A program made the position numbers and the translations under genes. The notes beneath the pieces are model-generated. The model made no database searches and was not told where the DNA came from. It saw only the letters and a list, made by a program, of their open reading frames with translations. Positions 14,139-20,161 of a stretch of 44,812 bases of DNA are shown piece after piece (position 1 is the stretch's first letter; every line of letters starts with the position of its first letter). The DNA is taken from contig JAJYRZ010000001.1 in the NCBI GenBank assembly GCA_021793835.1, positions 1-44,812 of the forward strand, read 5' to 3'. The DNA is from Actinomycetes bacterium (GTDB taxonomy: Bacteria > Actinomycetota > Actinomycetes > Mycobacteriales > Mycobacteriaceae).

Positions 14139-15047
14139 CTAGTCGGGCGTGGAGTCGCCTGATTCGGCGCCGACCGGATCCTGGGACTCCGCGTCCGGGG
14201 CGGGCTCGGCCGCGGCCGCGGGTTCGGCGGTCAGGACCGCCACGACACCGTCGCGCAGCGCGCGGGCGTAGCCGGAACGGACCGTGGGGTCGGGCAGCAG
14301 CGCGCCCTCGATGGTGTTGGCAGGATTGGCCAGCTGCACGAGCACGGTGGGCACCCCGGCCAGGTTCAGTTCGGCGGCCTCCGCGGTGGCCAGCACGCCG
14401 TCCTGCCCGGTGTAGGACGACGGGGTCAGCTGCCGGTCGGCCAGTGCGTCCCGGATCGCCCAGGCCGCGTCCACATCGGCGGCGTCGTCGGCGGGCGGAT
14501 CGGCGTGGGCGACGTGGAAGCCGAAGCCGGCCTCCGGGCCGGCGTCGGCGTGCAGCACCACGGCCAGGTCGGCGCCGGACTCGGCCGCCGCCTCGGCCCG
14601 GCCGTGCAGGCACGGTCCCGCGTGTGGATCCTCACGGGAGAGCACGACCGTCGCGCCGAGCTCGCGCAGGTGTCCGGCCAGGATGCGGGCGGTCTCGTAG
14701 ACGAACTCGTCCTCGCCGTAACCGGCCTCGGTGGCCGAGGCGTCGACCGCACACGGCACGGTCCCGCCGTGGCCGTCGGGCACCTCGACCTCGGATTCCA
14801 GGCCGTCCGGCGCGCCGTGCGCCGGATCGAGGAAGACGGTCTTGCCCACCAGCGGCCGCTCGGCGGTGGGCACCTCCTCCGCCGGCTCCTCGGCGGCCGA
14901 CGGGTCGACCTGTTCCTCGGTGGCCGACGCCGACGGCGGGTCGTCTCCGGTGGGGATGGTGCAGGCGCCGAGCAACAGGGCCAGCGCTGCGAGACCGGCG
15001 GCGGCCGGGCGACGATCCCGGCCGAGGGCAGAACGCAGGATGGGCAT
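14139..15047 (-). CDS. N-acetylmuramoyl-L-alanine amidase (Amidase_3, Rv3717/Ami1-like) lipoprotein, possibly inactive
   Basis: Lipobox LGAC, FLDPAHG, LSRE, LHADA, and a Cys pair. VLVQLAN stands where VLVELGN is expected. Confidence 0.85.
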   Translation of the reverse strand: MPILRSALGRDRRPAAAGLAALALLLGACTIPTGDDPPSASATEEQVDPSAAEEPAEEVPTAERPLVGKTVFLDPAHGAPDGLESEVEVPDGHGGTVPCAVDASATEAGYGEDEFVYETARILAGHLRELGATVVLSREDPHAGPCLHGRAEAAAESGADLAVVLHADAGPEAGFGFHVAHADPPADDAADVDAAWAIRDALADRQLTPSSYTGQDGVLATAEAAELNLAGVPTVLVQLANPANTIEGALLPDPTVRSGYARALRDGVVAVLTAEPAAAAEPAPDAESQDPVGAESGDSTPD

Positions 15048-15490: not shown

Positions 15491-16099
15491 ATGTACGAAG
15501 GTCCGGTCCAAGACCTGATCGACGAACTGGGTCGGCTGCCCGGCATCGGGCCCAAGAGCGCCCAGCGGATCGCCTTCCATCTGCTGACGGTGGAGCCGGC
15601 CGACATCGATCGGCTCACCTCGGCGCTGGGGCGGGTGCGTGACGGCGTCACCTACTGCGAGGAATGCGGCACGGTCTCCGATGCCGATCGGTGCCGGATC
15701 TGCAGTGATCCCCGCCGCGACCGCACGCGCATCTGCGTGGTCGAAGAACCCAAGGACGTGCCGGCCGTCGAGCGCACCCGCGAGTACAAGGGGCTCTACC
15801 ACGTGCTCGGCGGGGCGCTGAACCCGATCGCCGGCGTCGGCCCGGACCATCTGCGCATCCGGGAGCTGCTCGCCCGCATCGGCGGCGGATCCGAAGACGA
15901 GGAGGTCGCCGAGGTCATCATCGCGACCGACCCGAACACCGAGGGGGAGGCCACGGCGACCTATCTGGTGCGCATGCTGCGCGACTTCCCCGGGCTGGCG
16001 GTCTCGCGGCTGGCCTCCGGCCTGCCCATGGGCTCGGATATCGAGTACGCGGACGAGATGACCCTGGGCCGCGCACTGTCGGGGCGACGCACGCTCTGA
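15491..16099 (+). CDS. recR: Recombination mediator RecR
   Basis: [12 protein letters not shown]4 zinc finger and Toprim [12 protein letters not shown]. Confidence 0.97.
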
Positions 16100-16117: not shown

Positions 16118-16852
16118 TCAGGCGCGCAGACGCTCGGTGCGCAGCCGCTGCACCGACGGCATCGGCAGCGGCTGCAGATCGGCGGCACGCACCCCGAGCG
16201 CCGCGGCCAGGACCAGATCGGCCAGCTCCGGGTTGCGTGCGAGCACCGGGCCCTGCAGCCCGGTCGCCACGATCGGGCCCTGCACGGCCCCCTCGCCCCC
16301 GTGGTCGGCCGCGTCGCGGCGCGGGTCGTTGCCGACCCCGCGGGTGACCCGGCCCAGCGGGCGGGCTGCGCCGCCGAGGGTGATCACACCGGTGCGGTTG
16401 GCGAAGCCGGACAGCGGCGCGCGCAGCCCCGTGGCCGGGGCGGGGTCGACGACCGTCTCCCCGGTGCCGCGTTCGGCGGTGTAGACGGTGTCCAGATCCA
16501 GCAGTCCCGGGCCGTCGGCGGTGCGACCCTCGGCGGTGGTCAACCGGTGACCGAGCACCGAGATCCCGCCGCCCGCGGCCAGAACGGGGATCCCGCGCTC
16601 GACCGCGCGGGCCAGCCCGGGGTCGCGGCGCAGATGTTCCGCGGCGGGCAGCTGCGCCCGATCCTCGGCGCCGCCGAGCAGGTACAGGTCCAGAGATTCG
16701 GGCACCGCGGTGTCCAGGCCCGCTTCGACGAGCTCGACCGTGTGGCCGCGGGCGCGCAGGCGGTGGGCGAGCACGAGGACGTTGCCGCGGTCCCCGCCGA
16801 CGGCGAGGAGTTCGGGCAGCAGCACCCCGATGCGCAGTGCGGAGGAGGTCAT
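16118..16852 (-). CDS. gatD: GatD/CobQ-like type-1 glutamine amidotransferase homolog lacking catalytic residues
   Basis: GDRGN, LGGAED and GPVLARNPELAD scaffold. ATGA overlap with murT. Catalytic Cys and His are absent. Confidence 0.85.
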   Translation of the reverse strand: MTSSALRIGVLLPELLAVGGDRGNVLVLAHRLRARGHTVELVEAGLDTAVPESLDLYLLGGAEDRAQLPAAEHLRRDPGLARAVERGIPVLAAGGGISVLGHRLTTAEGRTADGPGLLDLDTVYTAERGTGETVVDPAPATGLRAPLSGFANRTGVITLGGAARPLGRVTRGVGNDPRRDAADHGGEGAVQGPIVATGLQGPVLARNPELADLVLAAALGVRAADLQPLPMPSVQRLRTERLRA

Positions 16853-18141
16853 CGGGCGTCCTTCCCGCCGCGTGCGGTCTCTGCGTCCACCGCACGCATC
16901 AGATCGGTCATGGCCGTGTAGTTGGCGAGCACCTCGACCGGGCCGGGCGGGCAGGCGTCGATCGCGGCCAGGGCGTCGGGGGCCTCGCGGTAGACGACGC
17001 CGGCGTAGTCCAGGCGCACCGCCAGATCGGCGGCGCGCTCACCGGTGACGGTCACCGTGCGGCCGGCGAACCGTTCGAACGGCACGTCCCACAGCCAGGA
17101 CAGGTCGTATCCGTCGCCCATCCGGGCGTTGACGGTGATCACGACGGCGGCGTCCGGGTCGGCCATGGCCAGCGACTCGCGCCAGCCGGCCGGGTTCTTC
17201 GCCAGCAGGGTGCGGGCCAGGTGCCCGCCGCGCTCGATGGTCCGGTAGCGGCCGGAGACCTCGCTGATCGACTCGGCGGCCCGGGCCGCGGTCTCCACGT
17301 CGACACCCAGCAGTGCGGCCGCCGCGATCGACTGGGCCGCATTGCCGAGATTGACCTCACCGGGCAGGGCCAGATCCAGGGTCCGGACCGCGCCGTCGGG
17401 GGCGTGCAGGTCGGCGCCGTCGAGCCGCCAGGTCGGTGTGGGACGGGCCAGGTCGCAGGAGGTGCAGCGCCAGTCCAGCGGGGCCTCCGCGCCGCCGCGG
17501 GCGAGGGCGCCGCCGCAGCGCGGGCAGGACTCGATGTCGGCGGATCCGGGGCGGCCCACCGACACCCACACGGTGGCGGGGTTGTCCCGGGCGATCGAGG
17601 TGATGAGCACGTCGTCGCAGTTGGCGACGGGCACGCAGTCCGGGTGTCGGGCCAGTCCGGCGCGCAGGCGGGCCTCGATGCCGGCGACCGAACCGACCCG
17701 GTCGGCCTGGTCGCTGGACAGGTTGAGCAGCACCGCCGCGGAGGGCCGCACGGCGTCGGCCACGTGCGGGACGTGCAGTTCATCGACCTCCAGGCAGGCC
17801 CGCGGGGCGGTCGGCGCCGCGGCCAGCGCCGCGACCAGACCGGCGTCCATGTTCGCCCCGTCGGCGTTGGTGGCCAGGGGGCCGAGGCAGTCCAGGGCGG
17901 CGGCGAGCATCCGGTTGGTGGTCGACTTGCCGTTGGTGCCGGTGATCAGCACCGTGCTGCGCCCGGCGGCGAGCTGGGACATCAGGTCGGGGGCGACCTT
18001 CAGGGCGACGAGCCCGCCGATCATCGAGCCGCCGCCCCGACCGGTGCGCCGCGAGGCCCAGGTCGCGGCCGCGGCCAGGCGCAGGGCCAGGCGGCCGCGG
18101 GCGGTGATGCGGCGCGCGGGCGCCGGGGCGGGGGAGGACAT
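16849..18141 (-). CDS. murT: MurT ligase (lipid II isoglutaminyl synthase subunit)
   Basis: GTNGKSTT, GANM, EVDE, CPRC..CTSC, LAKNPAG, DGYDLSWLWD and ANYTA motifs. Confidence 0.9.
   Translation of the reverse strand: MSSPAPAPARRITARGRLALRLAAAATWASRRTGRGGGSMIGGLVALKVAPDLMSQLAAGRSTVLITGTNGKSTTNRMLAAALDCLGPLATNADGANMDAGLVAALAAAPTAPRACLEVDELHVPHVADAVRPSAAVLLNLSSDQADRVGSVAGIEARLRAGLARHPDCVPVANCDDVLITSIARDNPATVWVSVGRPGSADIESCPRCGGALARGGAEAPLDWRCTSCDLARPTPTWRLDGADLHAPDGAVRTLDLALPGEVNLGNAAQSIAAAALLGVDVETAARAAESISEVSGRYRTIERGGHLARTLLAKNPAGWRESLAMADPDAAVVITVNARMGDGYDLSWLWDVPFERFAGRTVTVTGERAADLAVRLDYAGVVYREAPDALAAIDACPPGPVEVLANYTAMTDLMRAVDAETARGGKDAR

Positions 18142-18209: not shown

Positions 18210-20161
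<1,952 letters not shown>

Follow-up and report, generated by a model that had tools for sequence, protein, structure and literature searches.

The window analysed here, a stretch of 44,812 nucleotides, is contig C10 of a MAG (G000) of 2.98 Mb (81.3% complete, 0.22% contaminated, 270 contigs), whose estimated full genome size of about 3.7 Mb is like that of its congeners. Six genomes share its genus, and two of them encode MurT stretches identical to Tomitella-named proteins, so we call the organism Tomitella-like. The window carries murT and gatD between leuA and recR (table 1). The gene order leuA-murT-gatD-recR-ybaB is the same as in a congener, which indicates that this is the ancestral copy. 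No second murT/gatD, a search for which the first-pass annotation of this DNA had proposed, was found in the 81%-complete MAG, which holds one MurT_C match and one GatD. The class I glutaminase fold of GatD (CobB/CobQ-like, PF07685) and the middle and MurT_C domains of MurT (PF08245, PF08353) all scored over their cut-offs; the NCBIfam MurT and GatD equivalog cut-offs were not reached by this pair.

Table 1. Coordinates of the features discussed in the text. Positions without a prefix are those of the window; other prefixes denote contigs of the same MAG, except L224.
Feature	Position	Strand	Description and basis
Rv3717/Ami1-like amidase	14139-15047	(-)	peptidoglycan amidase
recR	15491-16099	(+)	flank; neighbourhood as in a congener
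gatD	16118-16852	(-)	predicted glutaminase-dead GatD, 244 aa; PF07685 66.9 bits, cut-off 27; homologue alignment
GatD Gly198-Leu-Gln200	16253-16261	(-)	replaces Tyr-x-His, catalytic His lost; codon 200 is CAG (16253-16255); codon, alignment
GatD Ala151-Asn-Arg153	16394-16402	(-)	replaces Glu-Asn-His; homologue alignment
GatD Gly94	16571-16573	(-)	GGC at nucleophile Cys position; codon, alignment, metagenome contigs
GatD Ala17-Val18-Gly19	16796-16804	(-)	replaces Gly-Thr-Tyr; by alignment, the Asn28-Thr29-Tyr30 plug of the ammonia passage in S. pneumoniae
murT/gatD overlap	16849-16852		4 bases (ATGA)
murT	16849-18141	(-)	430 aa; PF08245, PF08353 over cut-off; alignment
MurT loop facing GatD	17689-17715	(-)	S. 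pneumoniae 135-143; Arg→Ser143, Leu→Ala146, Glu→Ser151; alignment
leuA	18210-20015	(-)	flank; neighbourhood as in a congener
CarA	C92:4375-5553		Cys→Gly (codon C92:4738-4740); HPE→LPA, His also lost
PurQ	C76:24845-25525		Cys→Gly (codon C76:25103-25105); His→Ala
CobQ	C158:114-1619		Cys→Gly (codon C158:1143-1145)
CobB	C158:12757-15501		Cys→Gly (codon C158:14230-14232); P-loop Lys also lost
amtB missing	C38:5779-5946		between ftsY and glnB in two congeners; gap of 167 bases here
gltBD missing (about 6 kb)	C126:8147-9035		about 0.9 kb instead
pdxT missing	C242:9011-9161		pdxS retained
glmS missing	C173:18799-18904		between its upstream gene and nnr
trpG missing	C44:35920-37730		IS1634 transposase in its site; trpE retained
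NagB (L184)	C73:9734-10531		362 bits, cut-off 326
GlsA	C86:81-1634		stand-alone glutaminase
FMN-domain-only glutamate synthase proteins	C249:10448-12097; C169:2-1606		
PurF	C82:339-1031		Cys1 retained, glutamine loop altered
HisH	C170:1445-2050		HS→HG
MurT-GatD fusion, Brevibacterium yomogidense DSM 24850	L224:4001-6334		Cys→Arg, His→Gln

MurT retains its catalytic machinery: the P-loop Lys72, Asn97, Glu118/Asp120/Glu121, Asp144/Asp147/Arg148, the four zinc-ribbon Cys, Arg298, KNP, Asp346, Trp351 and Asp352. All the S. pneumoniae MurT residues described as important in PMC6085368 (K59, N85, D112/E113, D136, R140, the four Cys, D355 and W360) are present by alignment. The positions of R135 and E143 are replaced here; an E143A substitution is reported to leave activity unaffected (PMC6085368). 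Changes at near-invariant positions gave Ser143, Ala146 and Ser151, which lie in the loop suggested as the route for ammonia and are shared by the sister protein P0122, as well as Gly199, and 24 of 191 conserved MurT columns differ in this MurT or its sister. These changes fit a changed donor and slow decay equally well. Modelling of the MurT/GatD complex gave a score of 0.88 against 0.00 for the best control, with run agreement of at least 88% of contacts and a partner pLDDT of at least 86; the mark for this score is reached by 116/157 solved pairs and 2/215 mismatched pairs, and the prediction is a sign of likeness to solved MurT/GatD complexes, not of binding. Two RNA runs with small shares (0.19 and 0.05) say nothing either way on expression.

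Elsewhere in the window, the Rv3717/Ami1-like amidase (NCBIfam 173 bits, cut-off 335; a second, distant copy lies on C248) reads VLVQLAN where the solved homologue 7agl reads VLVELGN, the Glu of which is presumably catalytic.

Loss of the glutamine site in GatD and its spread among relatives

The gatD ORF is open across all 244 aa, with 0 stops and 0 frameshifts. Alignment to S. aureus GatD (5n9m) places Gly94 on Cys94 and Gln200 on His189, leaving GatD with neither the nucleophile Cys nor the catalytic His of a glutamine-hydrolysing enzyme. Replacing the equivalents of these two S. aureus residues is reported to abolish glutamine-dependent activity (PMC6085368; PMC6113224). Gln98, Tyr198, Glu151, His153 and the Gly-Thr-Tyr plug are lost as well, while Asp21, the GG oxyanion loop, Arg128, Gly23 and Pro202 are retained. 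A third acidic residue, defined as the counterpart of S. pneumoniae GatD Asp32 or MurT Asp349/355, and the substrate-capture Arg are thus both present (GatD Asp21, GatD Arg128, MurT Asp346). As read from its sequence, this is a MurT/GatD orthologue that lacks the two residues on which glutamine hydrolysis depends, and glutamine-dependent lipid II amidation by the pair is predicted to be absent.

The first-pass annotation, drawn up from the letters alone, had described an intact frame with the motifs AVGGDRGN, VLAAGGGIS, GFANR and ATGLQGP, the codons GGC (16571-16573) and CAG (16253-16255), and at least seven active-site changes. Frame, motifs and codons were all read as described in the ORF translation, and the changes are real but were undercounted, as this GatD (P0001) departs from the consensus at 26 of the 124 columns with conservation of 90% or more. 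Retention of conserved positions is uneven: 11/12 at the predicted interface with MurT, 80/95 elsewhere and 8/20 in the glutamine site and plug, the list of these 20 having been drawn up with the alignment already in view. The GC3 of gatD is 0.91, equal to the genome median (0.91). Conserved interface, eroded glutamine site, intact frame and GC3 together support the annotation's suggestion that GatD would serve as a non-catalytic scaffold.

Among 120 GatD homologues listed, the Cys is absent only in P0001, P0002 (87% identical to this GatD) and P0003 (62%, with the His kept); the remaining 117/117 hold both Cys and His. Three further members of the P0002 cluster show the same active site, and the frames are open in P0001-P0003 and in P0523-P0525. 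Both codons were spanned without difference in contigs of 4/4 metagenome runs from four studies, which, together with the Cys-less relatives, rules out sequencing or assembly error, as the annotation had argued for a single sequencing error. It had also raised fixation in related genomes: the Cys loss is fixed in the clade P0001-P0003, and each of the six congeners has one gatD locus with the Cys (6/6), the His being present in the 5/6 in which it was read. In a quick tree, to be read with long-branch caveats, the three dead GatDs fall together as a single clade (SH-aLRT 100) within a Tomitella group (99). As P0003 retains His200 and Gln98, this suggests that the Cys, the Tyr plug and Glu151/His153 were lost before His200 and Gln98. 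Run X2 contains a second Tomitella strain, with 23 differences over 289 bases. Scanning the genome collection with P0003 as query revealed no further loci of the dead clade, and a metagenome scan gave at least seven loci of 48-51% identity, with no clade member among the matches listed.

Cys-less GatD is not confined to this clade: of 147 cluster representatives that cover the site, 14 have no Cys there, in a search that favoured such proteins. Other natural Cys-less GatD-like proteins are P0283, P0289, P0291, P0297, P0310, P0323, P0353, P0356, P0376, P0378, P0380, P0385 and P0388, one of which is named from an Actinomycetaceae MAG. We further noticed a MurT-GatD fusion in Brevibacterium yomogidense, a species which we take to have been isolated from a poultry-manure product. 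Its MurT is degenerate (EVDE→ETRE), it sits inside a polysaccharide locus and it groups with the Tomitella GatDs. We considered B. yomogidense as a convergent whole-genome case and rejected it, given this setting of the dead fusion and the degenerate MurT; Cys and HPE are intact in 5/8 of its PF00117 matches plus a PurQ-type match, and two loci gave no motif readout.

Amidotransferases and nitrogen genes in the same genome

The other amidotransferases encoded in the MAG were compared with their congener counterparts. CarA, PurQ, CobQ and CobB each carry Gly in place of a Cys that is invariant in the congener copies (5/5, 4/4, 6/6 and 4/4, respectively). Over columns invariant in four congeners, the erosion is concentrated in the glutaminase parts: 54% of columns are retained in the CarA glutaminase domain against 93% in CarB, 58% in PurQ against 84% in PurL, and 58% in the glutaminase half of CobQ against 85% in its synthase half. 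In CobB, where the P-loop Lys is gone too, the loss may be plain decay. The Gly is found in 8/8 members of the CarA cluster (91-100% identical), and Cys and HPE are retained in 117/119 other CarA homologues. One of the two exceptions, the database protein P0431, is another dead CarA (Cys→Gly, His→Gln) with less erosion; in a quick tree it stands beside this CarA, and it may come from the P0003 lineage. A general loss of Cys was rejected as an explanation: among 64 further Cys that are invariant in the congeners, 12 are gone and only one of these became Gly, against 5/5 of the nucleophiles.

The remaining amidotransferases are intact at their catalytic residues. GuaA, PyrG and HisH retain Cys and HPE, LtsA and PurF their N-terminal Cys, and GatA its serine-amidase motifs, and the glutaminase parts of the intact enzymes keep 81-84% of invariant columns. 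The MAG also holds an NADP-GDH, two glutamine synthetases and a GlnE motif. With six amidotransferases, both glutamine synthetases and the GlnE motif retained, any shift away from glutamine is partial. The glutamine loop of PurF is altered (YSTTG→YASGD, NGN→NGA, DS→DA) and HisH carries one change (table 1); both could mark the onset of the same loss. In the MAG, as in the congeners examined, NadE has the short form.

Five genes or operons, amtB, gltBD, pdxT, glmS and trpG, are missing at sites where both flanks join on one contig. At the glmS site, C173 and C53 overlap within nnr over 126 identical bases. In the rest of the MAG, family searches gave no match for glmS, gltB or amt, and among near-complete genomes of the family glmS was present in 120/120 and amt in 57/60, the three misses being genomes of 1.6-2.1 Mb from one genus. 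The MAG encodes a NagB that is found in 0/6 congeners and adjoins genes that have 74-78% DNA matches in all six; it is a candidate ammonia-driven replacement for GlmS. Two FMN-domain-only glutamate synthase proteins persist despite the loss of gltBD, and the stand-alone glutaminase GlsA is a possible internal source of free ammonia.

Proposed explanations for the dead GatD: free ammonia and its rivals

The locus was found in 17 DNA runs from 10 studies, the possible source left out. Manure, farm, fertilizer, wastewater or digester labels apply to 13 runs and 6/10 studies, and the other four studies cover soil, food, dust and one organism. Manure-type habitats are ammonia-rich and often alkaline. 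We consider it probable that MurT is fed by ammonia on a dead GatD scaffold, and that this belongs to an incomplete, genome-wide replacement of glutamine by ammonia, which likely mirrors a habitat rich in ammonia. GatD, with its MurT-contact surface intact and without the Cys and His for splitting glutamine, would act as the scaffold. MurT would phosphorylate the D-Glu alpha-carboxylate of lipid II using ATP, and free NH3, supplied by diffusion or by GlsA, would arrive there by a passage that Tyr19→Gly and the smaller residues of the MurT loop have opened. This would yield D-isoglutamine, and GatD would be retained because MurT depends on it for folding or closure.

This model has a precedent in S. 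aureus, where GatD-C94G/MurT is reported to lose glutamine-dependent activity with NH3-dependent activity unchanged at pH 8.5, and where MurT alone and GatD alone are inactive (PMC3266927). Without GatD, MurT is degraded by trypsin (PMC6085368). The same S. aureus account places ammonia use at pH 8.5 only, with none at neutral pH (PMC3266927); the model therefore presupposes a cytoplasmic ammonia pool that is very high or alkaline, or an improved affinity for NH3. Across the genome, glutaminase subunits needed by their partner would be kept dead and freely dissociable ones deleted. The synthases CarB, PurL, PdxS and TrpE can take ammonia, which is what would allow dead subunits to be kept where needed and dissociable ones to go. 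For CarB, ammonia use is stated in PMC6245113.

The first-pass annotation had proposed free ammonia or a different amine as donor. Of these, ammonia is favoured by the genome context, because the same Cys loss occurs in CarA, PurQ, CobQ and CobB and glutamine-dependent genes are deleted. It is unlikely that MurT was instead re-tuned to couple a larger amine (glycine, or a diamine such as putrescine or cadaverine) to the D-Glu alpha-carboxyl, GatD then being a scaffold or the subunit that binds the amine. Smaller residues do stand at four near-invariant MurT positions here, of which three lie in the loop that faces GatD; the loop changes are common to P0122, P0526 and P0527, with all four changes read in P0122, and polyamines on the D-Glu alpha-carboxyl are described in Negativicutes (PMC10628300). 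A larger amine would, however, leave the losses in CarA, PurQ and CobQ unexplained, as their products need plain NH3. The 13/26 GatD replacement residues that are identical at the 62% level of divergence could point to a new selected site, but this share is near the 15/36 at variable columns and gives no clear sign of one. In M. smegmatis, moreover, D-Glu amidation is reported to be essential for cross-linking (PMC10484409). The annotation's new peptidoglycan modification route accordingly narrows: the predicted product would be ordinary D-isoglutamine, and the nitrogen route would be what is new.

Improbable, too, is a decaying pair in which D-Glu amidation has been abandoned, the other dead or lost genes reflecting life in a rich medium from which amino sugars, nucleotides and B12 are salvaged. 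GatD and MurT retain 64% and 75% of congener-invariant columns, against about 80-90% for typical housekeeping proteins, CobB has lost its P-loop Lys, and Akkermansia, which is without GlmS, is reported to be an amino-sugar auxotroph whose NagB cannot replace GlmS and has a Km for NH4 of 41 mM (PMC5902328). Decay is difficult to square with open frames, unchanged GC3 and MurT catalytic residues kept in two species (GatD about 87% identical), with a GatD frame open in a third lineage (62%), with the 93% and 84% of invariant columns kept in CarB and PurL, or with a congener-like full genome size. The dead GatD and its MurT are also equally diverged from those of the sister species (86.9% and 87.0% identity), as in intact congener pairs, which, as a protein-level proxy, counts against decay. 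Nor did salvage of amino sugars find support, as no NagA exceeded the cut-off in the MAG, and a motif scan gave no PTS EI, HPr, EIIB or MurQ, a weak test given that such scans missed some expected genes (gatB, purD and glmU). A redundant copy, with an intact murT-gatD (and carA, purQ and glmS) in the unassembled 19% of the genome, would agree with the incomplete, 270-contig assembly. We regard it as very improbable, since the dead pair occupies the ancestral leuA-murT-gatD-recR site as the one MurT_C match and one GatD of the MAG, 6/6 congeners have a single gatD locus, and about ten separate intact copies would all need to have escaped assembly.

The wider form of the ammonia-fed model seems to us evenly balanced. 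It holds that a manure-adapted Tomitella clade is giving up glutamine genome-wide, and that free ammonia feeds wall amidation, B12 amidation, the purine FGAM step and the synthesis of carbamoyl phosphate, PLP and anthranilate. Dead glutaminases would stay as scaffolds wherever the synthase depends on them and otherwise be deleted, and GlmS would be replaced by an acquired, aminating NagB. The organism would then be an obligate high-ammonia specialist; if true, this could be why it is uncultured, and a culture route with high ammonium and alkaline pH is suggested.

Comparison with known systems

Glutamine is regarded as the amide donor that cells use, and where amidotransferases take ammonia this is for the most part seen as a side reaction of the test tube. 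Five glutaminases inactivated alike, together with the dropped glmS, gltBD, amtB, pdxT and trpG, would amount to a natural experiment on which steps can run on ammonia in the cell. Other cases of dead GatD gain a testable donor, and the scaffold role of GatD would be separated from its catalytic role in an essential wall enzyme that is a drug target. In the main text of open-access papers, our search turned up no account of a GatD that naturally lacks the Cys, nor of genome-wide glutaminase loss.

The pair shares with MurT/GatD of S. aureus (6gs2, 5n9m), S. pneumoniae (6fqb) and mycobacteria the operon, the folds, the MurT catalytic residues and zinc ribbon, the Trp-Gly interface pair, and GatD Arg128, Asp21 and the GG oxyanion loop. 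It differs from them in the replaced Cys, His, Gln98, Tyr plug and Glu151/His153, and in a slimmer MurT loop. The closest parallel is the engineered S. aureus GatD-C94G/MurT, which carries the same substitution at the same aligned position; in the account of PMC3266927, amidation with NH3 survives there and GatD is still required. Here, in contrast, the substitution arose in nature, is fixed in a whole clade and comes with about 25 further changes.

That an amidotransferase synthase can use ammonia in the living cell is described for the ammonia-type NadE (PMC3376133), and in a related actinobacterium, C. glutamicum, HisH is dispensable, a result that PMC3896937 cites as unpublished. Each of these concerns one pathway, and no dead subunit is retained there. 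The ureotelic carbamoyl phosphate synthetase CPS1 uses free ammonia and keeps its glutaminase domain as an inactive scaffold (Cys→Ser), according to PMC4655335. CPS1 is a single specialised eukaryotic enzyme, whereas five enzymes of one bacterium are affected here; the known parallels are all single enzymes, and the open-access literature searched gave no genome-wide case.
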